The notes under the pieces were generated by a model, which was not told the DNA's origin, did not search any database, and saw nothing but the letters and a program-made list of their open reading frames with translations. A DNA stretch of 64,000 nt from assembly GCA_965248445.1 (NCBI GenBank), contig CBDFJG010000004.1, positions 1,408,001 to 1,472,000 on the forward strand, given 5' to 3'. The position numbers were made by a program, and so were the translations under genes. Shown here one piece after another: positions 27,005 to 41,200 of the stretch. Each line of letters starts with the position of its first letter. Positions within the stretch are counted from its first letter, which is position 1. The DNA comes from Planctomycetota bacterium (GTDB taxonomy: Bacteria > Planctomycetota > JAJSAM01 > JAJVHW01).

Positions 27005-28504
27005 GTAACCGTTCACCCCTTGACAGCGTGTGAGCCTCAGCGTGCGACGGGCAGCGGGACCATGACGGGCGGGTCGGCGCCGGTGAGGTGCGCGGCGACC
27101 GAGTCGGCGAGGAAGTCGAAGACTTGGTCGCCACGGCGTCGCAGCGTGGCCGCGGCGGTCAACACGCGCTCGGCGAAGCGGAGTCCGCGAGCGGACTGGC
27201 TTCCGAAGGAGCCCTTGCGCCAGAGCACCGCTTTGCGGACCGCGCGCTCGGCGGCGTTGTTGGTCGGACTCACGTCCTGGGTCCGCGCATAGGTGAAGAG
27301 GGCGACCACGCGGGGGCGCAGATGGTTGGCCAGAGCCGAGTCGTCGTTCGCGATCAGTCGCTCGAGCCGTCCGCGCAGCACAGCGGCTTCGCCTTGCAGC
27401 CGGTCACGGTCGCCGTGCTCACCGAAGAGCCGGTAGCTGCGCATGACCGACTGCGCGATCATGACGCCCTTGTTGCCGAAGCGGCGATGTCCTCGCGGGC
27501 CTTCGGCCAGCGCACGGAAGGCGCGCTCGATGTGCGCCCAGCAGAGCTGGCGGCGGGCAAGTGGGTGTGACTCGTAGGCACCCATCCGGTCGCTGATCAC
27601 CGTGCCACCGAAGCGCCGCCCGATCAGCCGCCCTTTCGCCTTGGCACTGCGGCGGCGATCGATCCCGAAGGCTGTGGCGTGCTCGCTCTCCGCCGCCCAC
27701 AGCCAGCACACCCGGCCCCGTTCCTTCCACGACGTCTCGTCCACGTTGGCTCGCAGCGACGTGCGGACTGCCCCGAGGGCTTCGAGGTACGACGAGTGCA
27801 GAGCGTCACTGAGCCGACGCTCACAGTCGCTGATCTTGCCCAGCGACATCTTCACACCGAAGATCTCACCGAGCAGCCGCTGCGTCTCCCGCACGCTCAC
27901 GCGGTACACGCCGCGCAGCGCGCCGGCAAGTGTGGTCAGCCGCGGACCGAAGGCCCCGGTCGGCACGCCATCGGGCAGGACCGCCGTCGTGACCGCACGA
28001 CAGCGCCGGCACCGCGCCTTGTGCAGCCGGTGCTCCCGCACCGTGACGAGCACGCGCGGGAGCACCGTCACCTGGTGCCGGTACGGATCGCCGATGCCCT
28101 GCTCGAGATCGTCGTGTCCGCACGCGTCGCAGAGGTCGGGACGGTGCTCCTTGGTCTCATCGACGTTGGACGGATCCACCAGCTCGCGCGCCGTGCCCTC
28201 ATGGCCCGGCTGTCCGCCCTGCTTGCGACCGCTACGCGGCCTTCGGCCGCGACGGCGCTTGGACCACGCCGGGTCCGACGACGGAGGCCTCGAGCTGTTG
28301 CGGGAGTCACGCTTCAGACGCGACTCGAGCTCGTCGATGCGGCGCAGATGCTTCGCTTCGCGACGCTCCAACTCCTCGATCCAGGCCAGAAGGCCCTCGA
28401 CCATCGCCCGCAGATCCTCGTCCTGCCGCTCGCCCACAACATCTTGATCGACCGATGGCCGAACGATCTGGATCCTGGCTCGCGACGAAGGGGTGAACGG
28501 TTAC
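27005..28504 (-). mobile_element. IS66-family insertion sequence, single-ORF (ISBst12-like), 1500 bp
   Basis: 17-bp perfect terminal inverted repeats GTAACCGTTCACCCCTT; flanks CTTCGGGA and CTTCCTGC are not a duplication. Confidence 0.93.
27037..28437 (-). CDS. IS66-family DDE transposase
   Basis: Coiled coil, NSSRPPSSD, GGQPGH, Zn ribbon, DET...SD...TNNAAERAVR. Confidence 0.95.
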   Translation of the reverse strand: MGERQDEDLRAMVEGLLAWIEELERREAKHLRRIDELESRLKRDSRNSSRPPSSDPAWSKRRRGRRPRSGRKQGGQPGHEGTARELVDPSNVDETKEHRPDLCDACGHDDLEQGIGDPYRHQVTVLPRVLVTVREHRLHKARCRRCRAVTTAVLPDGVPTGAFGPRLTTLAGALRGVYRVSVRETQRLLGEIFGVKMSLGKISDCERRLSDALHSSYLEALGAVRTSLRANVDETSWKERGRVCWLWAAESEHATAFGIDRRRSAKAKGRLIGRRFGGTVISDRMGAYESHPLARRQLCWAHIERAFRALAEGPRGHRRFGNKGVMIAQSVMRSYRLFGEHGDRDRLQGEAAVLRGRLERLIANDDSALANHLRPRVVALFTYARTQDVSPTNNAAERAVRKAVLWRKGSFGSQSARGLRFAERVLTAAATLRRRGDQVFDFLADSVAAHLTGADPPVMVPLPVAR

Positions 28505-28626
28505 CTTCCTGCCAGTCCGTCAGACTGGCACTCGGGGGTTTCAACAGGTTGACACTCTGCCGACAGCGCGTCCATGGCGTCGCTGAGCAGTGCGCGCAAC
28601 GCGACGATCTCGTCTCGGAGCGTCAC
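28505..28626 (-). pseudogene. Phage ORF truncated by IS66
   Basis: GTG overlaps the upstream stop; MTLRDEIVALRALLSDAMDALSAE...; the stop codon is supplied by the IS end (G TAA). Confidence 0.6.
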
Positions 28627-29273
28627 GGCGCGGCCCTTCGGGCAGCACGGCCGAGCATCCTCTCGGTGCTGATGAAGCCGCTCGGGTCCTCGGTCTTGAT
28701 GCGGCGACGCTGGTTTACCCAGTCGATCGAGCGGCTCCCCGATGACTCGGCAGCGCGATCTCGGTGCACGGCCGATGCCAGGTCCTTCAGCCGGCCGTCC
28801 TTCAAGCGGGACCGGGAGCCGGCCCAGGCAAGAGCGAAGCGACGGGCCTCCCCCTCGTTAGGGGGAGGGGGGGGTTCTGTCCCTGTCCCTGTCCCTGTCA
28901 GAGCTACTTCCGAACGATTTTCGTCACGCGCGCTTCCGTGACGTTTCTTGTCCCGCGCCTTCTTCGCTCGAGCCGGAGATCCCGGATCCTTCTGCCACCT
29001 ATCCCATTTCTGGATCACGTAGTTAGGGCCAACCTGTTCCACCCAACCAAGGGCAGTCAGGGCGCGAAAGAACACACCCTGTCTACGCTTGGAGAGCCCC
29101 GCAAACGCCTCCAGTAGGGGGGCGATGACTGTCCCGTTCACGGTCCCGTTCCAGCCCTCTCGTTTCGAAATCGTCAGCAGAACTACCCAGGAATAGCGGT
29201 GTTCTACGGGGAGGGTCAGGGTCTCCAGGTCCATCGGAAACCCGGTGCTGAGGGCTATCCACTGGCGTGTCAC
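28623..29273 (-). CDS. Putative phage replication initiator-like protein
   Basis: N-terminal WI.L, winged-helix-like G.V...W..WQ, basic linker, GTGTGTE repeat then PPPP; GTG at 29273 overlaps the upstream stop. Confidence 0.6.
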   Translation of the reverse strand: MTRQWIALSTGFPMDLETLTLPVEHRYSWVVLLTISKREGWNGTVNGTVIAPLLEAFAGLSKRRQGVFFRALTALGWVEQVGPNYVIQKWDRWQKDPGSPARAKKARDKKRHGSARDENRSEVALTGTGTGTEPPPPPNEGEARRFALAWAGSRSRLKDGRLKDLASAVHRDRAAESSGSRSIDWVNQRRRIKTEDPSGFISTERMLGRAARRAAP

Positions 29274-29854
29274 CCGGCGCGCTCCCTCGCGCGCTCCTGG
29301 TGGTGCCGACGCAGCCACACGAGGAAGGACTCGTAGTCGCGATCGGACAGGCGAGCGACCCGCCCCTGGACCGACTTGAGCCGCTGGGCGCGCACATGCT
29401 CTATCGCTCCGCCCCACGACTCGATCTCGTAGAGGCGGGGGAAGGCGATCTCCAACGGCCTGCGGTGAGCGCATGGAACCGCGCCAGAGGGCGGGTGGTT
29501 CTGCGTGTTCTCGCACGGCGCTAGCGCGTCGATGAGTGCGGCTTCAAGGTAGCGCACGCAGCGGTGGCGGGTCTCGGTGTAGACGTCCACCCAGAGCATC
29601 GCGCCTGCCGCTTCTGCCGCGAGCAATAGCGTCTTGCCCTCCCACCCCTTCCCGATGTGCGCCGAGATCCGCCACCATTGCCGACGGGTCATGCCGACAT
29701 AGCTACAGACGACCCCGCGCTCATCGGGCCACCGCGCCGAGATCACGTACACGAGGTGGCTGTGGAAACCCAGGTCGGTGATCGTGTGGCGCGTCAGGTC
29801 TTCGCGCGCGGGGCCACCGTAGCAGGGCTCAAGAGACGCAAGCGTCGCGCTCAT
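29270..29854 (-). CDS. GIY-YIG-like nuclease
   Basis: LVYVI...YVGMT...R..H...E..LI...N pattern. Confidence 0.72.
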   Translation of the reverse strand: MSATLASLEPCYGGPAREDLTRHTITDLGFHSHLVYVISARWPDERGVVCSYVGMTRRQWWRISAHIGKGWEGKTLLLAAEAAGAMLWVDVYTETRHRCVRYLEAALIDALAPCENTQNHPPSGAVPCAHRRPLEIAFPRLYEIESWGGAIEHVRAQRLKSVQGRVARLSDRDYESFLVWLRRHHQERARERAG

Positions 29855-30081
29855 CGACGGATTCCCCGGCTCTCCATCCCGCCCGCTCTCGACCCCGTGC
29901 TGTGTTCAGCGCGACCCAGAACGGGCACGATGTCACAGGGGAGAACGGACGAGACGGAACGCCGTCGGTCGAAGCGCTGAACACGCCCTCCATTGTCGCC
30001 GACAGACACCCCCACAAGGCTCCGCATGTCGGCGTGTGGAGAACCCGAGGAAGCGGTTGGCCGCATGTGGATCCAGCTCAC
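29851..30081 (-). CDS. Phage hypothetical protein (76 aa)
   Basis: Fills the gap exactly with 4-nt overlaps on both sides. Confidence 0.45.
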   Translation of the reverse strand: MSWIHMRPTASSGSPHADMRSLVGVSVGDNGGRVQRFDRRRSVSSVLPCDIVPVLGRAEHSTGSRAGGMESRGIRR

Positions 30082-30338
30082 GACGCGAGGGCTCCCTTCG
30101 TCTTCGGGGGCCTGTTCCAGTGCGAGATCTTCTTGTCGCGGATCGCGCCCTTGACGTGCCGCAGCTGCCGGGAACACGTGTCGACGCGGCAGTAGTGATA
30201 CGCGTGGAACTCGTCGCCATCGACGCCACCGATGCCGCGCAGCATGTGCGTGTCTTGGGTCGGCCCGTGCACAGGGCATCGCCACCACGTGCCGGGGAGC
30301 GAGTCGATCTTGGGCGCCTTCTTCGGTCGACCGGTCAT
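30078..30338 (-). CDS. Phage hypothetical protein, putative Zn-binding (CPVH...C....C)
   Basis: ATGA overlap with the HNH stop. Confidence 0.6.
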   Translation of the reverse strand: MTGRPKKAPKIDSLPGTWWRCPVHGPTQDTHMLRGIGGVDGDEFHAYHYCRVDTCSRQLRHVKGAIRDKKISHWNRPPKTKGALAS

Positions 30339-30643
30339 CCCGTCCACCCCCAGAGCTGCGCGCGGAGATCGCGGACGTGCTGCCGGGCGCGCGCCCAGTT
30401 CACGTGGACCGGTCCCGCCTCCGACTCGTCGACTCTCATGTAGACGCCACGCAGGATCCGTGATCCCTTCGCTGCGTTGCAGGGCCCGCACGCTGGCACC
30501 CTGTTCTCCCGGCGGTTCGTACCACCCTTCGCGCGCGGGATGATGTGGTCGACGGTCTCGGCCTCGCCGCACCCGCAGTACGCGCAGTCCCGCGGCGTGA
30601 AGCCCGCGAACGCGACGTTGTCGGCCAGGTACGGGTGGTTCAT
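30335..30643 (-). CDS. HNH endonuclease
   Basis: CAYCG..TVDHIIPRAKGG.N...N.VPAC..CN..KG. Confidence 0.92.
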   Translation of the reverse strand: MNHPYLADNVAFAGFTPRDCAYCGCGEAETVDHIIPRAKGGTNRRENRVPACGPCNAAKGSRILRGVYMRVDESEAGPVHVNWARARQHVRDLRAQLWGWTG

Positions 30644-30858
30644 GCGCCGTCCCGTACACGCGCGGCGGGGTCCGTCTTCCCGGCCTTCTCGAACACGCGG
30701 CGGCGGAAGTCGTCGCAGAGCGCCGACAGACCGTCGGCACTCGCACCGGACAGCGGAAGCGACTGGCCGGTGAGCTCTCCGTCTCTCCCCACCATGAGCA
30801 GGAAGTTCGGGATGGCGATCGGCCTGACTTCCGCGCGTACTTGGATCCTCTCACCCAT
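30640..30858 (-). CDS. Phage hypothetical protein (72 aa)
   Basis: GGAG RBS, overlap-coupled. Confidence 0.65.
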   Translation of the reverse strand: MGERIQVRAEVRPIAIPNFLLMVGRDGELTGQSLPLSGASADGLSALCDDFRRRVFEKAGKTDPAARVRDGA

Positions 30859-31015
30859 CGTTCGTCTCCTCTTCCTGCTCCGGGCGCTCGACCGGCTTGC
30901 GCCCGAATGGCAACTGCTTCGGAGGGCACCGCTCGCGGTGGTCCTCGAACTCCTCGAGTGCCGGGTCGCCCTGGCGCTTCCAGCGGATGAGTTCGTCGCA
31001 GATGGTGCAGATCAC
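30851..31015 (-). CDS. Phage hypothetical protein with C2HC-type Zn motif (CTIC...H...C)
   Basis: GTG at 31015 overlaps the upstream stop. Confidence 0.55.
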   Translation of the reverse strand: MICTICDELIRWKRQGDPALEEFEDHRERCPPKQLPFGRKPVERPEQEEETNDG

Positions 31016-31908
31016 GACTCGCCCCGCTTGTCGTAGGCGGCGCCGATGATGCGTCGCATCCAAGACCCCACGGTGAGGGAGGCAGGGCAGTCGTGCGACG
31101 CGAGGTGGTCAGCCGCCTCCCCGATCCACGCTTCGTCGGCTTCGCCCGCACCGCACTCCGGACTCTGGCGGCACCACCAGAGCGTCAAGCGGGATCCGCA
31201 CGTCCCGGAGCACGCCACGCCGCTCCGCGCCCTCGCGTGCAGCGCGTCCTGGACGGCCTCGTCCATAGCCTCGCGGGCTGACCTCCCGCCCTGGATGTGT
31301 CCAAGGAGGGCGTGGCACTCTGCGGCCCGTGCTCCGGCGATTGCGCGAGCGTGAGAGTCGTCGGCCTCTTCGGACGCCTGAATCGCGTGTCGGCGGCTGC
31401 GTTGCGCGATGACGGCGTAGACCCGCTGCTGCTCGTCGCGGGCGGTCGCGGAGTTCGCCTTCGCGAGCGCGTTGCGGAGGCCCTCGACCATCTTGTCCAG
31501 CTTGCGGAGTTCGGCCGTCTGTCGCGCGATGCGATTATCGCGGTCGGATACACGCGTCTTGCCCTGCACCAACTCCTCGCGTAGCTGATCGACGCCGTCC
31601 TGCTGCGCCGCGTTCCGGTGGTCGGCCACCTCTCGACAGAGGTTCCCCACAGACGGGGGGTGGTGCTTCAACCGGTCCTGTGGGCATTGCGGATCAGCGA
31701 CGCCCCGGAATTCCTGCCACACGCTCTCCGCGGTCCACACCGGCGGATGTGCCGCGGCGTACTGGCGCTCAACGTCTGCCAGCACGACGCGGCCACCGAT
31801 GGCCACACAGCCTTTCGCGATGCGGAGCATCCGCTGCTCCTTGGCGTACCACTCCAACTTGTCTCCAAGCGTGACCTCGCTCTCGCTGACCATGCTGTCG
31901 TTCTTCAC
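31012..31908 (-). CDS. Phage hypothetical coiled-coil protein
   Basis: 298-aa ORF, overlap-coupled, central heptads, Cys-rich C-terminus. Confidence 0.65.
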   Translation of the reverse strand: MKNDSMVSESEVTLGDKLEWYAKEQRMLRIAKGCVAIGGRVVLADVERQYAAAHPPVWTAESVWQEFRGVADPQCPQDRLKHHPPSVGNLCREVADHRNAAQQDGVDQLREELVQGKTRVSDRDNRIARQTAELRKLDKMVEGLRNALAKANSATARDEQQRVYAVIAQRSRRHAIQASEEADDSHARAIAGARAAECHALLGHIQGGRSAREAMDEAVQDALHARARSGVACSGTCGSRLTLWWCRQSPECGAGEADEAWIGEAADHLASHDCPASLTVGSWMRRIIGAAYDKRGES

Positions 31909-32213
31909 CGGTTCCTCCCGTTCGCCGCGGCCTGTAGCGCGCGGATACGCGCTTCCAGGTTGGCGATGTGCAGCCGTTGGTCCCGGCAGTCCGCATGCGC
32001 CCCGATCTGCGCGCGCACGAAGTCCGCCGGCTTCTCGTCGCCCGGCTCGAAACCCATGTCGGCGAGCAGCTTCCCGAAGTTGGCGATGTGCTGCTCGGCG
32101 TCGTCGCGTTCGCCCTCGGCCTTCTCGCGTCGGCCGCGCTCGTCGTCGAGTGCGCGATTGGCGGCGCGGAGTTCGGCGCGCAAGGTGTCGATCTGCTTGT
32201 CGGTCGTCGTCAT
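31905..32213 (-). CDS. Phage hypothetical coiled-coil protein
   Basis: 102 aa, GGAGG RBS, overlap-coupled. Confidence 0.65.
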   Translation of the reverse strand: MTTTDKQIDTLRAELRAANRALDDERGRREKAEGERDDAEQHIANFGKLLADMGFEPGDEKPADFVRAQIGAHADCRDQRLHIANLEARIRALQAAANGRNR

Positions 32214-32632
32214 GCGCGCCCCTCCGGAATCCTGACGCCGTCAGGTAGTGGCCGAAACCACATGAAGTCGGTGACGCGCGTCAGCCCCGCCCGACTCGGG
32301 TGCGGGTCGTGGACCATCTCGGTGCCGATGCCGACGACAGCGTGCGACCGACCGCGAGGTCCGTCACCCCCGATGATCGTCGCAACGTCGGCAGGGACGG
32401 CGTGCGCGTTCTCCCCGTCGCAGAGGTAGACGCGTAGTCTCCAGTTCTCGCGCGCGAGATCGACGGTGATGTTGAACCAGTGCCGCTCTACGTCTTCGTT
32501 GCTGTGGAACTCCAAGATGTGGGGCACCTGCTCGGCATCAACTCCGAGGATTGACGCGATGCAACAGCGATAGCAGTCGCCGCCGTCTCCGAGAATCGTC
32601 TGGTCGACGGGCCAGATGGCCGGCGCGGTCAC
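32210..32632 (-). CDS. Phage protein with papain-like (C39-type) Cys-His-Asp signature
   Basis: DQT..GDC..CCIASIL, SHAVV, VHDP; GTG at 32632 overlaps the upstream stop. Confidence 0.65.
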   Translation of the reverse strand: MTAPAIWPVDQTILGDGGDCYRCCIASILGVDAEQVPHILEFHSNEDVERHWFNITVDLARENWRLRVYLCDGENAHAVPADVATIIGGDGPRGRSHAVVGIGTEMVHDPHPSRAGLTRVTDFMWFRPLPDGVRIPEGRA

Positions 32633-32925
32633 GGTTGCACCGCCGGGAACTCCCGGACGCGCAAGTCCTGGGGCCACTCGGCGGGATCGCCGCCCTTGCG
32701 GTCGCGGAGACGGACGACAGTCCGCACCTCCTCGGGAGTGAAGCGCCGGCACTCGCAACGGAACCTCGACGAGCTGAACAGTCGATTCGCGCCCCGGGCA
32801 CCGCAGCACCGTGACCGGGTGAAGTAGTGCGCGAGGCGCGGGTGCCCGCAGGCGCAGGGCGCGTAGGGATTGGGACGCCGCGCGTCCGTCTTCGCCATGC
32901 CGCGGGAGAGCTTTGTGCCGTTCAT
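32629..32925 (-). CDS. Phage Cys/His-rich protein (CACGH...H...C...CEC..F)
   Basis: Overlap-coupled; C-terminal DPAEWPQDLRVREFP. Confidence 0.6.
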   Translation of the reverse strand: MNGTKLSRGMAKTDARRPNPYAPCACGHPRLAHYFTRSRCCGARGANRLFSSSRFRCECRRFTPEEVRTVVRLRDRKGGDPAEWPQDLRVREFPAVQP

Positions 32926-33065
32926 CGCCCGACACCCCGGGGACCGCCTCGGGGAACGGTACGCACCGCACAGGGGGCGACGGAGTGCAGCGGAGGCGGT
33001 GAATTCGAGCCCACGGAGGCCCTCGCGCGGGTCCCGGGGTCATTGCAAATCCGTGGCCCCCTCAT
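32922..33065 (-). CDS. Phage small ORF (47 aa)
   Basis: ATGA overlaps at both ends; absent from the ORF track. Confidence 0.4.
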   Translation of the reverse strand: MRGPRICNDPGTRARASVGSNSPPPLHSVAPCAVRTVPRGGPRGVGR

Positions 33066-33484
33066 GCGGACGCCTCGGCGACGACGCCGTCGGGCCACGC
33101 GCTGTCAGGCCACGGGTCGGCGTAGTGTCGGTCGCGCAACTTGGGCGGGACGGAGCGGGTTGCGGCTGCGAGGCGGGCGGTCGCGCGCCGCCTCCACTTC
33201 ACCGCGGACTCGTGCATCCGCTGCCGGCGCTTGCACGGGGCGCACCAATCCTCCGGCTCCCGCGTGCCCCACTCCTGGTGGTAGTCGCCGTAGAAGTCCA
33301 TCGACTCGGACGTGACTCGATGGCGCCAGCACGGCGGGTCGTCGCCCTCGACCTTGTCGCCCTTGCGGGTGGCCCAGCCGCGGCTATCCTTCTCCTCGAG
33401 TTCGCACACGACCTGGGCGCGCAGCACCTTCCAGAACTGCGCGAAGCGGCGCGCGCGACCGAGGGCGCGGATCGCACGGCTCAT
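33062..33484 (-). CDS. Phage hypothetical protein (C...C...C..C)
   Basis: 140 aa, first complete gene of the coupled chain. Confidence 0.6.
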   Translation of the reverse strand: MSRAIRALGRARRFAQFWKVLRAQVVCELEEKDSRGWATRKGDKVEGDDPPCWRHRVTSESMDFYGDYHQEWGTREPEDWCAPCKRRQRMHESAVKWRRRATARLAAATRSVPPKLRDRHYADPWPDSAWPDGVVAEASA

Positions 33485-33532
33485 GCCGCCACCGCCAGGT
33501 CTTCAGCTACACCGGGACGCGTAGCGTGAGCG

Positions 33533-33646: not shown

Positions 33647-35107
33647 CTACCGGATGTGGAAGTGCTCGAGGAAGCCCTTGTTCGTGCTGGTGGTTTCCAG
33701 CTTGTCGACGAGCAGTTCCATCGCCTCTTCGGGCTTCAGCTTGTTGAGCACGCGGCGGAGGGTCCACGTGAGCTTGAGGACCTCCGCGGGGACGATCTTC
33801 TCCTCCTTGCGCGTGCCGGACTTGCTGATGTCGAGAGCGGGCCAGATGCGCAGTTCGGCGAGCTTCCTGTTGAGGACGATCTCGGCGTTGCCGGTGCCCT
33901 TGAACTCCTCGAAGATCACCTGGTCCATGCGGCTGCCGGTGTCGACGAGCGCCGTTGCGATGACGGTGAGTGAACCGCCGCCCTCGACGTTGCGCGCGGA
34001 ACCGAAGTGTCTCTTGGGGTGCTCCATCGCGCGGCTGTCGAGGCCGCCCGAGAGAGTGCGGGATCCGGAGCCCGTCTCCATGTTGTAGGCGCGTGCCATG
34101 CGGGTGAGCGAGTCGACCAGCATGACGACATCCTCGCCGGCTTCGACGAGCCGCTGCGCGCGGGCGAAGGCCATCTCGGCGACGGCGACGTGGCACGGGG
34201 CCAGGTCGTCGAGCGAGCTCGCGATGATGTCGCCCTTGATGGTGCGGCGGATGTCGGTGACTTCCTCGGGGCGCTCGTTGATGAGCAGGACGAGGACGTG
34301 CACGTCGGGGTAGTAGGTGTTGAGCGCGTTGCCGAGCTTCTGAAGGATGACCGTCTTGCCCGCGCGGGGCGGGGCGACGATCAGGCAGCGCTGCCCGAAT
34401 CCGACGGGAGCCAGCAGGTCGATCACGCGGGTCGTGACGTCCTTCCCGTCGCCTTCGAGCTGCATCCACCGCTCGGGGTCGATGGTCGTCAGGTGCTTGA
34501 ACGGGACCCGGAACTTGTACTCGTCGGGATACTGACCATCGAGCGTTCCGATCTCGTGGCACGTCGGGCGGTGCCCGTTGCGGCCGGGGATCTCGACCTT
34601 GCCCATCACCCGCGTGCCGCTGGCGATGTTGTACTTCTTGACGAGCGCTGCGGGCAGGTAGACGTCGTCGTGTTCGGCGATCAGGTTCTTGTGGATGCGC
34701 CGCAGGTACGCGAAGCCCTCGGGCATGACCTCGGCGATGCCGTCGGCGGTCTCGGGGAGCTCTCCGCCCGGCATGTACGGGGGCTGCTTCTGGTGCCAGC
34801 GCTGCGGACGTGCGCCGCCGCTGCCGCCGCCACGCCGGCCACCGCCGCCACCACCGCCGCGCCGCGCGCGGTTGCCTCCGCGCTTCTGCTGGCGCTTGCC
34901 GCCGCCGCCACCACCGCGGCGTCCGCGGGTCTTCTTGGGCTGGGTGGCGCGGGCGTTGCCGCCGCCACCACCGCCGCCTTGGCCGCCGCCTGCGCCGCGT
35001 CGGCCGCGTCGGCCGCGCCGTTTGCGCCGGCCGCCGCCTGGGCCGCCGCCGGATCCGCCGCCACCACCGCCGCCCGCTGGGGGGCCGCTTGAGTCACTGG
35101 GAGTCAT
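33647..35107 (-). CDS. rho: Transcription termination factor Rho with Gly/Arg-rich N-terminal extension
   Basis: G.GQRCLIVAPPRAGKT, ERPEEVTD, DSLTR.ARAYN, LSGG, FEEFKGTGN, SGTRKEE. Confidence 0.97.
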   Translation of the reverse strand: MTPSDSSGPPAGGGGGGGSGGGPGGGRRKRRGRRGRRGAGGGQGGGGGGGNARATQPKKTRGRRGGGGGGKRQQKRGGNRARRGGGGGGGRRGGGSGGARPQRWHQKQPPYMPGGELPETADGIAEVMPEGFAYLRRIHKNLIAEHDDVYLPAALVKKYNIASGTRVMGKVEIPGRNGHRPTCHEIGTLDGQYPDEYKFRVPFKHLTTIDPERWMQLEGDGKDVTTRVIDLLAPVGFGQRCLIVAPPRAGKTVILQKLGNALNTYYPDVHVLVLLINERPEEVTDIRRTIKGDIIASSLDDLAPCHVAVAEMAFARAQRLVEAGEDVVMLVDSLTRMARAYNMETGSGSRTLSGGLDSRAMEHPKRHFGSARNVEGGGSLTVIATALVDTGSRMDQVIFEEFKGTGNAEIVLNRKLAELRIWPALDISKSGTRKEEKIVPAEVLKLTWTLRRVLNKLKPEEAMELLVDKLETTSTNKGFLEHFHIR

Positions 35108-35622
35108 ACGTCTTGCACCCCATACGGGGAGCCTCTCTCTTCCGGACCCGCTGGTCGCGGGTCTCACTCGAACCGGCATCTCGGCCGCTGGCGTGCTTCC
35201 CCGGTCTCACGGAGACACAGCACACCCGGACGCCCTGCCGGCGGATCGTCGATCTGGCGCTGTGGCGCAGTCGCGGCGATCGGCCGGACGGGACAAAGTT
35301 GCATCGGGGGAGGGAACCGATCCGGCTACAGGCTGCCCGATAGGGTCGGGCCGACCTGAGAGGCCGTCATGGGCTTCTTCCTCGTCCGGCACGCCTGCCA
35401 GTCCTGGCGGGTGCGCGGGCGGTTCCGATGTCCTTTTCTACATCGGCAAGACCGGGTCCTCCCATGGAAATCAACTCGGGCCCCGGGAACTTCCCGAGCC
35501 TGGACAGCCTCGATTGTGTGCCTGACGTCGTCTCTCGCCCCTGCGTGGGGGGCCGCGTAGGCCGCCCCTGCGGTTGAGCCGAGAACCGCCTCAACGGCGT
35601 CAACCGTTGAGCCAAACATGAA

Positions 35623-36032
35623 TGCCGGAGCGGCCCGTAAGCCGGATCCTGTGACCCACCCCCGAAGGGGCGGGCGACGACCATTTCTCTGGGACGACCG
35701 TTGCCGGCCGCCTCGAACGCCCTACCCGGGAGTCATGACGAGACGGGCAGCCTCGCAGAGGGCCGAAGCCCTCATCCCCCCCTATGTGGGCTTTCTCCGG
35801 ACGGGGTTTACCGTGCCGCTGACGTCACCGTCAGCGCGGTGGGCTCTTACCCCACCGTTTCACCCTTGCCTCCTCCCCGGCCCTCGCGGACCGAGGCGAT
35901 CGGCGGTCTGTTCTCTGTGGCACTTTCCCTGGGCTTGCGCCCGGTGGGCGTTACCCACCGTCGTGCCCTGTGGAGCCCGGACTTTCCTCGGCGCCCGCGA
36001 AGGACGCCGCGGCCGTCCGTGCCGCTCCGGCA
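35623..36032 (-). ncRNA. rnpB: RNase P RNA (bacterial type A)
   Basis: GAGGAAAGTCCGGGCTC, AGTGCCACAGA, GGGTGAAACGGTG, GGTAAACCCC, ACAGGATCCGGCTTA; terminal P1 pairing TGCCGGAGCGGC/GCCGCTCCGGCA. Confidence 0.97.
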
Positions 36033-36038
36033 ACTCTG

Positions 36039-36047
36039 ATTCTAGCA
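36039..36047 (-). promoter_or_regulatory. Extended -10 promoter of rnpB (TGcTAGAAT)
   Basis: 6 nt upstream of the P1 start. Confidence 0.65.
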
Positions 36048-36075
36048 CTCCGCGGTCTTTGGCTACGATCTCGGC

Positions 36076-37143
36076 ATGCGGGAGGGGTTGCCGCCGGAAG
36101 TTCCGGCGATCGTATTGGAGCGCGCCGAGGCGCTTGCCGAGGCGGTCGCACTGAGCGCATCGGAGCTGTCGGGACAGCTCGAATTCTCGACGTACAACTG
36201 CGCGGCGGTCGTGCCGCCCGCGTTGGTGGGCGAACTGGGTGTCGAGAAGGACCTCGTGAAGGCGGTCGTGCGGCGGGCGCTGCGCACGCGGCTGAAGTCC
36301 GCTTGGCCGGAGCGCCGCTACGAACCAGAGCGGCCCGAGGTCATCGTGACCGCGCGGTGTGGCGAGGCGCCGGTGGCCGAACTCGCGGCGCTGCCTGTCT
36401 ACGTGGCGGGGCGGTACATGAAGCACGCGCGTGGGCTGTCGCAGACGGTCTTCTACTGCCGGCGTTGTCGCGGTAAGGGACGACTGCGCGGTGCAACGTG
36501 CAGTCGATGCCGCGGCAGCGGGCGGTTCGTGGAGGAGTCGGTGGAGGACTTCGTGCGCCCCGTGATCGAGCGCGCGATGCAGGGGCGCGGCTCGTCGTTC
36601 CACGGAGCGGGGCGCGAGGACGTGGACGTGCGCATGCTCGGCACCGGGCGGCCGTTCGTCGTGACGGTCGAGAGTCCCCGGTTGCGCAGCGTGGATGCAG
36701 CTGCGGTGATCGCGGCCGTCGCAGAGGCGAGCGGCGGACGTGTGACGGTCGCTGATCTGGTGGTGGTCGACCGAGCCGTGCGCCGGCAGATCACCTCGGA
36801 GCACGGCGAGAAGGTGTACATGGTCGAGGTGCGTGCGGTCGGCGGAGCGTTGCCCGAGGGCGCCGCAGCGCTGCTCGCTCCCCTGTCCGGCGCGACGCTC
36901 TCGCAGCGGACTCCTCAGCGGGTCGAGGCGCGGCGTGCAGACAAGGTGCGGGAGCGCCGCGTGCGCGAACTCGAAGTGATCGAGTCGAGTGCGGATCGGC
37001 TGCTGCTGCGGCTGACGACGGATCCCGGGCTCTACGTTAAGGAGTTCGTGTCGGGGGACGACGGGCGGACCGTGCCGTCCGTGGCGGGGGCGCTCGGCAT
37101 TGCGTGCCTCTGCACGGAGTTGGACGTGGTGGCGGTTCGCTGA
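36076..37143 (+). CDS. pus10: tRNA pseudouridine(54/55) synthase, Pus10 family
   Basis: GRYMK..RGLSQT, FHGAGREDVDVRMLGTGRPF, K.Y, QRTPQRV..RR, GLYVKEFVSGDDGRT.PS, LDV. Confidence 0.9.
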   Translation: MREGLPPEVPAIVLERAEALAEAVALSASELSGQLEFSTYNCAAVVPPALVGELGVEKDLVKAVVRRALRTRLKSAWPERRYEPERPEVIVTARCGEAPVAELAALPVYVAGRYMKHARGLSQTVFYCRRCRGKGRLRGATCSRCRGSGRFVEESVEDFVRPVIERAMQGRGSSFHGAGREDVDVRMLGTGRPFVVTVESPRLRSVDAAAVIAAVAEASGGRVTVADLVVVDRAVRRQITSEHGEKVYMVEVRAVGGALPEGAAALLAPLSGATLSQRTPQRVEARRADKVRERRVRELEVIESSADRLLLRLTTDPGLYVKEFVSGDDGRTVPSVAGALGIACLCTELDVVAVR

Positions 37144-37513: not shown

Positions 37514-38285
37514 CTACTTGATCGTGTAGCTGCGCAGGCTGGCGGCCTTGTGGAAGCCGACCTTGCGCGCGAGCATCTCGCCGGCGCCGTCGCGGTTCGG
37601 GACGATGGCGCAGGCGAGGCGACCCTGGCCGTGGTGGGCCTTGACCAGGCGGCGCATGCAGGCGGTGGCGTAGCCCTGTCGACGGCTCTCGTCCTTTGTC
37701 GCTACGACCAGGCGTGCGTGATTGACCGACGTGTCAGCCGTCAGCGCGGCGCAGACGACTTCGTCGTTGATCACGATGCCGTAGCCGCCGCCGGCCATCA
37801 GCAGTTCGTTCACGGACTCGTAGGTGCGCAGAAGGCCCGGGATGCCGAGCGCCACGACGGAGTCGGCGTCGGCCAGACGCAGACGGCGGAGTCCCTCGAC
37901 GCGATCCATCTCCGGCGTGTCCTCGATGTCGGAGAACCAGACGACGGAGTGGCTGTCGGCCGACACACCGGCGTGGTGCTCCTCGAAGAGGGGCGCGAGC
38001 TCATCGCTGCAGAGCACCTCGACGGGCCCCGTGAGCGCGGCGAGGTACGTCGCGAGCGGGCCGTTCTCGACGTGACCGAACGCCCAGATCTGGTCCGGTA
38101 CTCCGGGCTCGCTCGGGACGCGAATCGCCACGGCGCCCGGCGCGCTCGGCGAGTCCACGTCGACAGTGCCGCACCTTGCGCTCCAGGGCGTGGAGCGGCG
38201 TGGTCGTCCACGGCGTGTCCGGCATGAACGGCCGCAGCGCGGGGAGCTGCTCCGTCTCGAGGGTCTTGAGAGTTGCTTCGCTCAT
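37514..38285 (-). pseudogene. GNAT-family acetyltransferase, apparent +1 frameshift near 38174-38177
   Basis: MSEATLKTL...ALERK in one frame continues as CGTVDVDSP...; C-terminal RRQGYAT...N....LARKVGF. Confidence 0.72.
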
Positions 38286-38289
38286 GGTT

Positions 38290-41200
38290 TCAGTCCTGAC
38301 TGGCGGGAGACCCCGCCTCATTCCGATCGGGGCCTACGCCGCTGCGCTTGAGGATGAAGTCGAGGGCAGCCACGGTGTGCTCGTCGATGTAGACGTTGTC
38401 GTCCCGGCCGTGGCGGCGGGGCCGGGCGCTGCGTTCGGCGAACGCTGCCAGGGTCGCCGGGAGCTCCTCCGCGGCCTCTCGGCTCCGATCCGGGTCGTCC
38501 CAGGCGTCGAACGTGTCGTCGGCGTCCAGGATGACCTCGGTGGTGGTCCCCTCTTGCAGAGCTGCGACGCGGGTGTCGCCCAGCGCGGAGATGACCACGC
38601 TGTGAACGTCATCGATGTCGAACGGTCGTGTCAGCACCCGGTCGATGCCGGCGTGACGCGCCGGCGTGTCGTCGATGCCGTGACCCGGCTCGGCGAGCAG
38701 CACGATCCGGAGAGCCGGCCGGCTGCGACGGGCGAGCCGGCAGAGTTGCCAGCCGCTGTCGCGCCCGAGCGCGAGCTCCGTGATCAGTACGTTCAGCGAG
38801 TTGTTCGTCGTCGTGCCGAGGATCTTCGCCGCCTCCCCGTACGTGCCCACTCCGATCAACTCGACGCCGCGGCTCTCGAGGCCGCACCGCAGACGCTCCG
38901 CAATCCGTCCGTGCGCCGACACGTGCAGGATGCGCGGCGACGGTGGGAGCGCCGCGGAGCCGACGGTGTCCCCGGTCGAGTCGCTGCGCGCGTTGTATGC
39001 CGGCAGCACGATCGTGAACGTGGTGCCGTCCTTCGACGTCCGGACGTCGATGCGGCCGTCGTGCGCGCGCACGATGCCGTAGCAGATCGACAGCCCCAGA
39101 CCTGAACTCGGCCCGGCGGGCTTCGTGGAGAAGAACGGGTCGAAGATCTTGTCGCGCACTTCGGGGTCGATCCCCGTGCCGGTGTCGGTGACCCGCAGGC
39201 CGACCGAGTCCTCGCCGCGGTCGAACGACTCGACGGTGACGGTGCCACCGAGCGGCATCGCGTCGAGCGCGTTGAGCACCAGATTGAGCATCGTCTCGCG
39301 CAGTTCCGACGGGTTGCCGTGGATCTCGCGGCGGGCGTTCTTGCGGCCGACCACGGTGATCGAGATCCCGTGCTCCTGCTCGATCTCGTCGACGCGCTGT
39401 TTCACGAACGCCACGACGTCCTTCACGATCGCGTTGGCGTCCACCGCCTCGGACTCGAGCAGGCCCGAGCGGGGCCGCGTGAACTCGCGGATGCGGCGCA
39501 CGGTCTCCGTGCCGTCGAGCGCCGCGCGCTCGATGACCCGCGCCGCCTCCGCCGCTTCGCCCGTGAGGCCTTCCATGAGGAGGAACTGGGCGTTGCCGAG
39601 GATCGCAGCGAGCACGTTGTTGAAGTCGTGCGCCACGCCGCCGGCCATCTCGCCGAGCGCGCGGAGCTTCTCCGAGCGCGCCGTCTCTCGCTGCGCCTCC
39701 GTGCGCTTGGTGACATCGGTCACCACGCCGCATGCGCCGATGACCCGGCCCTCCTCGTCCATGAGCGGCATGGCCGAGACGATCGTGCGCGCCTTGCGGC
39801 CGTCGGAAACGATCCACGAGACCTCGTAGCGGCCGTTCTCCCCCGCGTGCCGCAGCGCCAGTTCACGCCGGTAGATCGCGATGGAATCGGCCGTGAGCAT
39901 CTCGGGGATGGTGCGGCCGATCACGTCGTCCAGCGATCGCTTGAGCAGGGATGCAAAACGATCGTTGGCGAACGAAATCCGGTCCTCGGAGTCGGTGATC
40001 ACGAATCCCTCGGTCATCGACTGGATGAGCACGGCGATCCGCCGCTGGCTCTCCTGCAGCCGCGCGAGAGTCGACTGGAGCCGTACACGCGACGTGTTGA
40101 GTGCGATTGCCACCGACGCGATCTCGTCTTGCCCGCGCACAGGGATGTGCTTCGACAGATCACCGCTCGCCATCGCAACTGCGGAGTCCTGCAGCGGCGC
40201 GAGGCGTTTTTGAAGCCAGGCTGCGAAGCGCACACCGGCAAACACGGCCATACCACCAAACAGCACGGAGAGCACGAGCATCGCGGCGCCGATCCGCTCG
40301 GCAACGTCGCGGCTCCTGCGCGACGCGTCGAAGGCAGTGTCCACGGCGGTGTATCGCGGCAGAGCCGACACGACGCACCAATCGGAGTTCGGGACGCTGC
40401 ACGCGGCGGAGACCGCCTGCTCGCTCATGAGCGTCATGCCGTTCTCGCTCGCCGGCAGACGGTCCGAGTCCCCGAGCAGCTGAGTCAGCTCGTCGTCGAG
40501 CCGGAGAGCGCGGTTGTCCGTGTCCGGCGCGATTCCGAGCGCGTCGAACGCGGCCTGCGGCACGTGCAGCGGCGTGCGGTCGCGCGCGAGCAGAAGCGTC
40601 GCTGCATGCGGTCGGATTCCACCGCCGGCCTCGAGGACTTCCGCGATCTCGTCGAAGTCGAGCACGACGCGGACCCATGCGTATTCGCTCCCGGCCGCAT
40701 CGGTGATCGCGGTCTGGTACGAAATCGCACGTCCACTCGTCGTCTCGTACGGGCCGTGCCAGCCGTCCGTCGCGGCCGCCTCAACGCGGGACATTTCGAT
40801 CGGCATGGCTCGGAGGAGATCCGACGCCGCGCTCTCGTACCGTCCGGGCGAGGACGGGGGCTCGGCGAGGAGGACGCCTTCGCCCTCGATCCACACGGAC
40901 ACGCTCTGGATCGGGGTGTCGCCGCGGGTGACGACCCGCACGACGTCGCCCAGGTCGGCGGCACGCTCGCAGAGCGAAGCCAGGTGCGCGTCGTCCGTGG
41001 TGGACGCCCGCGCGGCAGCGGTGACGGCGGGAACGCCGGCCTCGATGAAGGCGACGTCACGCTCCTCGAACACGATTCGCTCGACACTGCGGTCCCCGGC
41101 GTCCAACGGTCCCGGCCCGCGACGGCGCACGACGTCGGCGACGGCCGCGGCGGCGAGCTCGACGCGTTCGCGGCGTTCGGCGGCCGCGCGTGCGGCGTGC

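Follow-up and report, generated by a model that had tools for sequence, protein, structure and literature searches.

In bacteria, the pseudouridine at position 55 of tRNA (Psi55) is formed by TruB (COG0130). Pus10, an enzyme of a different family, is stated to be absent from bacteria in passages of three articles published between 2021 and 2025 (PMC7912444, PMC12710931 and PMC12716993), and our literature search, which worked by title and abstract with most subscription papers and supplementary tables outside its scope, returned no report of a bacterial Pus10; some homologues have already been annotated "tRNA pseudouridine synthase 10" by database pipelines. The Pus10 of M. jannaschii (TIGR01213, COG1258) is of the dual type, making both Psi54 and Psi55. 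According to passages of PMC3753934, loss of its forefinger segment ffl2, of R273 or of Y339 abolished Psi54 in vivo; neither Psi54 nor Psi55 was lost in vivo from the H376A/R377A and C106A/C109A mutants, whose Psi54 formation was reduced in vitro; and archaeal Pus10 complements E. coli truB. The same passages describe the Pus10 of Pyrococcus furiosus as making Psi55 only.

The window, a stretch of 64,000 nucleotides from a Planctomycetota genome, contains an intact open reading frame of 355 amino acids with an ATG start, pus10, at positions 36076 to 37143 of the forward strand. Its product exceeded the cutoffs of both Pfam Pus10_C (184.8 bits, cutoff 27) and TIGR01213 (286.6 bits, cutoff 200), had no match to Pfam TruB_N, and remained below the cutoffs of the Cbf5 models (19.6 to 23.4 bits, cutoffs near 240). 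A PDB sequence search gave human PUS10 (2V9K) as the sole match (E 1e-22), and Foldseek returned the same entry as the top match (TMq 0.75) to an AlphaFold2 model built from an alignment of 44 sequences (pLDDT 94.8). The model aligned with 2V9K over residues 1-355 (Z 24.5, rmsd 3.9, 322 residues aligned; next entry Z 13.4), and in it a Pus10 fold is predicted with both the forefinger and the thumb loops present. Human PUS10 is thus the best fold match over the whole length of the protein, but it has no Cys-rich forefinger segment and a longer, zinc-binding N-terminus. TruB, which shares the predicted product and target and a pseudouridine synthase core (Z about 12), matches structurally only within residues 106-355. 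Profile, sequence and fold together confirm the original prediction that this open reading frame belongs to the Pus10 family. Among the best 120 of 2095 homologues, 45 proteins without a precomputed PF22023 domain were 48-59% identical to the window protein, and beyond these the identity fell to about 37-45% for archaeal-type proteins.

The catalytic motif FHGAGREDVDVRMLG, residues 175-189 (36598..36642, + strand), contains R180, the catalytic D182 and D184, is invariant in 44 of 44 clade proteins and aligns with the human PUS10 motif. The forefinger region, C128-V156 (36457..36543, + strand), has two CxxC pairs in the arrangement C128xxC131xGxG...C142xxC145xGxG, with all four cysteines and V156 invariant (44/44), and corresponds to ffl1 plus ffl2 of M. 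jannaschii Pus10 by the residue numbers in passages of PMC3753934. The intact motifs and the CxxCxGxG...CxxCxGxG forefinger noticed originally were therefore both recovered. The M. jannaschii numbers in those passages were transferred by constant offsets, not by sequence alignment: with an offset of 93, R273, D275, D277, C238 and V249 become R180, D182, D184, C145 and V156, and with an offset of 91, Y339, H376, R377, I412, K413 and L440 become Y248, A285, R286, V321, K322 and L349. On this numbering, R180, D182, D184, Y248, K322 and L349 are conserved in 44 of 44 clade proteins and V321 in 43. In the thumb loop, Q277-D289 (36904..36942, + strand), sequence comparison showed that the archaeal His is replaced by Ala285, with Arg286 retained; His is found at column 285 in none of 44 clade members and Arg286 in 41, whereas the His-Arg pair is present in 67 of 69 scored archaeal-type Pus10 matches.

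The N-terminus appears to be a reduced THUMP-like domain of approximately residues 1-107 (36076..36396, + strand) with an alpha/beta fold of high pLDDT; the median length in the clade is 106 aa. Matches to PF22023 were weak in 20 of 44 clade members and lacking in the window protein, which was matched weakly by an archaeal N-terminal profile (E 0.01 among 46). No CxxC precedes the catalytic domain in any of 45 scored clade proteins, whereas 61 of 72 scored others have two pairs there. The original description of a short N-terminus without a Cys pair was thus correct as to length but understated the loss, since both zinc CxxC pairs of the archaeal enzymes are missing, and with them the four-Cys zinc site of archaeal- and human-type Pus10.

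The window protein shares with dual-type archaeal Pus10 the catalytic domain, seven core residues (Ile as Val), the Cys-rich forefinger with ffl1 and ffl2, and the thumb Arg, but differs in its bacterial host, an N-terminus about 60 aa shorter and devoid of zinc CxxC pairs, a lost thumb His, a 6-residue insertion in the forefinger and no TrmY partner found. With P. furiosus Pus10, as described in passages of PMC3753934, it shares the replacement of the thumb His, but the ffl1/ffl2 segments and the thumb Arg, all present in the window protein, are lacking in the P. furiosus enzyme, and P. furiosus has an m5U54 methylase, none of which was found in the window's genome. On the offset numbering, the equivalents of the dual-specificity determinants ffl2, Arg273 and Tyr339 are present (C145-V156, R180 and Y248), whereas the complete thumb His-Arg hook is absent. 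Because most of the Psi54 determinants are kept, and because the His/Arg pair and the zinc cysteines were dispensable in vivo in the mutants described in those passages, the sequence permits dual activity, which is compatibility rather than proof.

The genome carrying the window (G000; 5.4 Mb, 4 contigs, 92.1% complete) is bacterial, as predicted: its named relatives are Planctomycetota, and a bacterial class A RNase P RNA gene and rho lie alongside pus10. TruB was not found in it by a Pfam search in which 14 of 14 controls were positive, by a profile of 26 TruB proteins of the phylum (best E 1.1) or by tblastn with the TruB of a sister family, and PF05958 (TrmA/RlmD), TrmFO and TrmY had no match. 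None of truB, trmA, trmFO and trmY, the genes that the original prediction proposed to look for, was therefore detected. The genome does have TruA, five RluA/RsuA-type synthases, RnpA and RbfA; a search for TrmI (m1A58) gave only a marginal GCD14 match. ARAGORN made 56 calls, six of which look spurious, and the T-loop starts with TTC in 50 (49 by script tally plus tRNA-Lys(ctt) read from the printed sequence). With no U54 methylase found, U54 would stay free and Psi54 would be a real possibility. The GC content (0.71) and GC3 (0.85) of pus10 fall between the 5th and 95th percentiles of the genome's genes (3738, crudely called), which fits an old, ameliorated acquisition. A scar of truB was sought by synteny and none was located, the neighbours not being conserved. 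The absence of truB after rbfA was considered as evidence and dropped, since no rbfA was detected next to truB in four sister-family loci (crude gene caller). In addition, PF13932 (MnmG/GidA C-terminal) matched in 0 of the 17 genomes of the order (controls 9/14), with no GidA cross-match in families f1 and f2, and the wobble U34 MnmEG pathway may be absent from the whole order.

The order in question comprises 17 genomes (G000-G016) in three families, f1, f2 and f3. TruB is present in 4/4 and Pus10 in 0/4 genomes of f3, whereas in f1 and f2 TruB is found in 0/13 and full Pus10 in 11/13; G014 has only an N-terminal fragment at a contig end, and in G003 (76% complete) neither gene was found. A search of 11 f1/f2 genomes gave no TrmFO match. 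In one f3 genome, G009, truB is split across two frames (L168:1431-2134). Across 351 Planctomycetota genomes, each at least 90% complete, we found Pus10 in 59, a TruB_N match in 186, both in one (G271) and neither in 107; the Pus10 count omits three weak Pus10_C matches (G334, G339 and G367) and one in G026, whose protein is Cbf5-like, and the TruB_N count retains six weak matches in families f82 and f95, which may be Cbf5-like proteins. TruB_N was thus found in 1 of 59 Pus10 genomes against 185 of 292 others, an exclusion for which Fisher p values are overstated, since kin are not independent; by a count from the survey listings, TruB was unmatched in 15 of the 16 families that have Pus10. 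In a set of 61 genomes, the window protein was matched in 19 and TruB_N in 28, and G057 alone had both. These data support the proposal that Pus10 has replaced TruB, which was not detected in the host genome and hardly ever co-occurs with Pus10 in the phylum. Neither gene was found in about 25 of 86 families (in f35, 0/26 for both); TruB is thus often lost without replacement, and its loss may have come before Pus10. TrmFO exceeded its cutoff in 6 of 66 Pus10-bearing genomes, none in f1 or f2, and the weak PF05958 matches (85 bits or less) in 50 of the 66 are read as probable RlmD-type proteins, not TrmA. In G271 (one contig; loci L161 and L162), a diverged Pus10, with His in place of the first forefinger Cys, accompanies an intact TruB; G271 is possibly a transition state. 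An archaeal-type Cbf5 (255 against an NCBIfam cutoff of 242) was observed at L148:1225-2193 in G026, a Planctomycetota bin that also has TruB; it may be a contaminant.

Head-to-head with pus10 lies rnpB, a single-copy class A RNase P RNA gene on the reverse strand (35622..36032; RF00010 259.3 bits over 35622-36029, plus an extension of P1). Helix P1 reaches 36032, three bases past the Rfam end, by a 12-bp complement, so that the gap to the ATG is 43 bp (46 bp by the Rfam ends), the distance given originally. Both -10 elements that had been placed in this gap were located as hexamers: a predicted extended -10 of rnpB, TG-n-TAGAAT (36039..36044, - strand), with a TAnnnT hexamer at offset 9-11 in 9/9 loci, and a predicted -10 of pus10, TACGAT (36064..36069, + strand), 6 nt before the ATG, as for a leaderless start. 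A scan for the full sigma70 consensus found no -35/-10 pairs, and the two predictions therefore follow position and conservation, not a full consensus. A TAnnnT hexamer precedes an in-frame start by 6-8 nt in 10 of the 11 full clade loci as well as in G014 and is rare in other bacterial pus10 loci. In the window's genome, 390 of 3561 genes (11%) carry this signature, compared with 59 (1.7%) when a control spacing is used, and the peak lies at spacers of 6-9, which makes leaderless starts look frequent in this lineage. Judging from these sequence signatures, pus10 is probably transcribed as a leaderless mRNA. Six RNA runs had shares of 0.05-0.07; in the three that were examined, the coverage came almost entirely from conserved parts of the rnpB of other organisms, and they speak neither for nor against transcription of the locus. 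A DNA run that bridges rnpB and pus10, which may be the source sample, was left out of this assessment.

The synteny with rnpB, proposed originally as a check in relatives, holds within the order: pus10 and rnpB are head-to-head in 9 of 19 loci scanned, all from f1 and f2, and with G014 in 10 of the 13 f1/f2 genomes. Downstream of rnpB lies rho (33647..35179, - strand; NF006886 above cutoff), which adjoins rnpB in f1, f2 and three of four f3 genomes; since the rho-rnpB link is shared with f3, pus10 appears to have joined an older block. At its N-terminus, the rho product is extended by a long Gly/Arg-rich segment that also occurs in relatives. Downstream of rho, the window (27037-33500) contains a transposase-like ORF (27037-28437), perhaps IS66-like, and a run of small phage-like ORFs, among them an HNH-like ORF (30335-30643); in L054, an integrase-like ORF follows rho. 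On the other side, downstream of pus10, a GNAT gene (37514-38321, - strand) appears split over two frames, with ORF 38001-38321 resembling the N-terminus of intact relatives and 37514-38158 the remainder, which suggests a frameshift or an assembly error.

Two unrooted trees were built, a quick one of 93 rows and a careful one of 51 rows chosen from those plus four database proteins; the archaeal rows were the best matches to the window clade, without Thermococci, Methanococci, Crenarchaea or eukaryotes. In both, the Pus10 proteins of f1 and f2 formed a single clade (100/99) within which each family was a sub-clade of its own, as expected under vertical inheritance. The Planctomycetota proteins consisting of the catalytic domain only (THUMP-less) formed another clade (100/96), whose sister group (99/95) was made up of short-N-terminus proteins of the Iainarchaeota type, and seven further Planctomycetota rows were scattered, some near Thermoplasmatota, with weak support. 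The THUMP-less proteins share the phylum and a near-absence of TruB with the window protein but most have only 10-17 aa ahead of the catalytic domain, and their genes do not adjoin rnpB; the window clade appears separate from them. AU tests, on groups named only after a first tree had been seen, rejected the grouping of all 25 bacterial rows into a single clade (p=0.008) and, narrowly, that of the window clade with the THUMP-less clade (p=0.034); owing to skewed composition and long branches in several rows, both results are provisional. Several origins of bacterial Pus10 are likely. From its patchy distribution in bacteria and broad distribution in archaea, we infer a transfer from archaea to bacteria, and horizontal acquisition from archaea is supported as the simplest origin. 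The phylogeny with archaeal rows that the original prediction had proposed thus recovered one clade for f1 and f2 but did not identify the donor. A euryarchaeal donor, suggested originally from the HGAGRED motif and the Cys-rich forefinger, is not upheld: both features also occur in Bathyarchaeia and Iainarchaeota, the Cys forefinger occurs in Asgard archaea, and the sister of the window clade had no supported placement in either tree. A search for a mobile vehicle found nothing in phages; a haloarchaeal megaplasmid gave a single match, weak and partial. Iainarchaeota-type archaeal Pus10 with short N-termini (about 85-95 aa) were observed at L061, L068, L072, L075, L128 and L131. In a record labelled Paracoccaceae (L116), Pus10 is nested within the Planctomycetota THUMP-less clade, which suggests a mislabel, a misbin or onward transfer.

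We consider it likely that an old transfer from archaea gave rise to this gene and that its product now serves as the tRNA Psi55 synthase, either displacing TruB or filling a gap left by its loss; G271 and G057, which carry both genes, together with the lost thumb His (44/44) and zinc site, are among the counterpoints to this reading. That the enzyme makes Psi54 as well may be true, at somewhat less than an even chance. The narrower form, in which it resembles the P. furiosus enzyme, makes only Psi55 in place of TruB and leaves U54 unmodified, is about as plausible and perhaps marginally more so. The invariable absence of the thumb His from the clade and the missing zinc cysteines point to this form, as changes at both sites reduced Psi54 in vitro in the M. 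jannaschii mutants described in passages of PMC3753934, and the six genomes of other clades that keep TrmFO have an enzyme that would claim U54; but the same passages report both products from these mutants in vivo, the equivalents of the ffl2, R273 and Y339 needed there for Psi54 are invariant in the clade, and no TrmFO matched in the f1/f2 genomes searched. It is improbable that Pus10 has instead been repurposed for another RNA or site (rRNA, tmRNA or RNase P RNA) or that its main role is that of an RNA chaperone, with TruB missing through the background loss frequent in the phylum. The 107 genomes with neither gene, the reduced and diverged N-terminal domain and the two genomes with both genes would be in keeping with such a role, but Pus10 and TruB exclude each other across several separate Pus10 clades as well as within one order, the loops that grip the T-arm and the catalytic residues are invariant, and the TIGR01213 equivalog cutoff is exceeded.

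The head-to-head arrangement raises the further question of whether 5' processing and T-loop modification are co-regulated under selection through a shared bidirectional promoter, as had been suggested. The linkage in 10 of 13 f1/f2 genomes would agree with this, as would three of nine full loci (L003, L006 and L007) in which the two predicted -10 hexamers overlap on a shared TA with a predicted start spacing of 23 bp, a value among the common start spacings of bidirectional promoters in passages of PMC12825309. In the other six loci, however, the hexamers are separate and the predicted start spacing ranges from about 32 to 113 bp (about 44 in the window); the link is broken in three of 13 genomes (five ORFs intervene in G012, the genes are on separate contigs in G016, and an RCC1-repeat gene occupies the pus10 slot in G003); and rnpB was found near pus10 in 0/8 loci of other families (1.5-kb flanks) and 0/15 named Planctomycetota loci outside the order (flanks up to 5 kb), 23 bacterial loci in all. 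Plain inheritance of gene order would suffice, the rho, GNAT and kinase neighbours being conserved too, and because linkage is conserved but geometry variable, co-regulation remains a minority reading that we regard as rather unlikely. That the gene is an artefact of binning, with archaeal DNA (a contig or a fragment) assigned to a bacterial genome, has a negligible probability: pus10 lies on a 2.04-Mb contig next to bacterial class A rnpB and rho, its composition matches the genome, and the same arrangement in nine other genomes rules out a misbinned fragment by synteny.

For the preferred reading, an archaeal Pus10 now acting as Psi55 synthase, the following path may be envisaged. A stand-alone, active Pus10 would have passed long ago from an archaeon to the ancestor shared by f1 and f2 and been inserted upstream of the pre-existing rnpB-rho block, where its own -10 element would drive a leaderless mRNA. 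By homology, the reduced THUMP-like domain would hold the tRNA acceptor arm, and the T stem-loop would be clasped by the forefinger and thumb loops; R180 would assist the flipping out of U55, and D182, in a salt bridge to K322 and within a pocket lined by Y248, V321 and L349, would isomerise U55 to Psi55. U54 would be left free and then possibly converted to Psi54. In its fullest form, which we regard as less likely than not, one captured zinc-less Pus10 would make both Psi54 and Psi55 in a cell with neither TruB nor a T54 methylase, leaving tRNAs without ribothymidine; it would be one of several independent captures from archaea by Planctomycetota, each without TruB, and expressed from a leaderless gene back to back with that of RNase P RNA.

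The enzyme family and its chemistry are known; what we rate as new are the bacterial occurrence, the zinc-less architecture and a displacement that can be tested. Two bacterial families have Pus10 as a fixed gene, and in the phylum sample it occurs in 59 of 351 genomes, hardly ever together with TruB. It seems to have been gained more than once and would thus offer a naturally recurring example of a tRNA-modifying family being displaced by another. The full archaeal enzymes, those with a zinc-less reduced THUMP-like domain and those with the catalytic domain only form a natural truncation series, which could help to define the role of the Pus10 N-terminus and the specificity for Psi54 versus Psi55. 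If Psi54 is indeed made, the tRNAs of these bacteria would be in a modification state new relative to the passages of the literature consulted.
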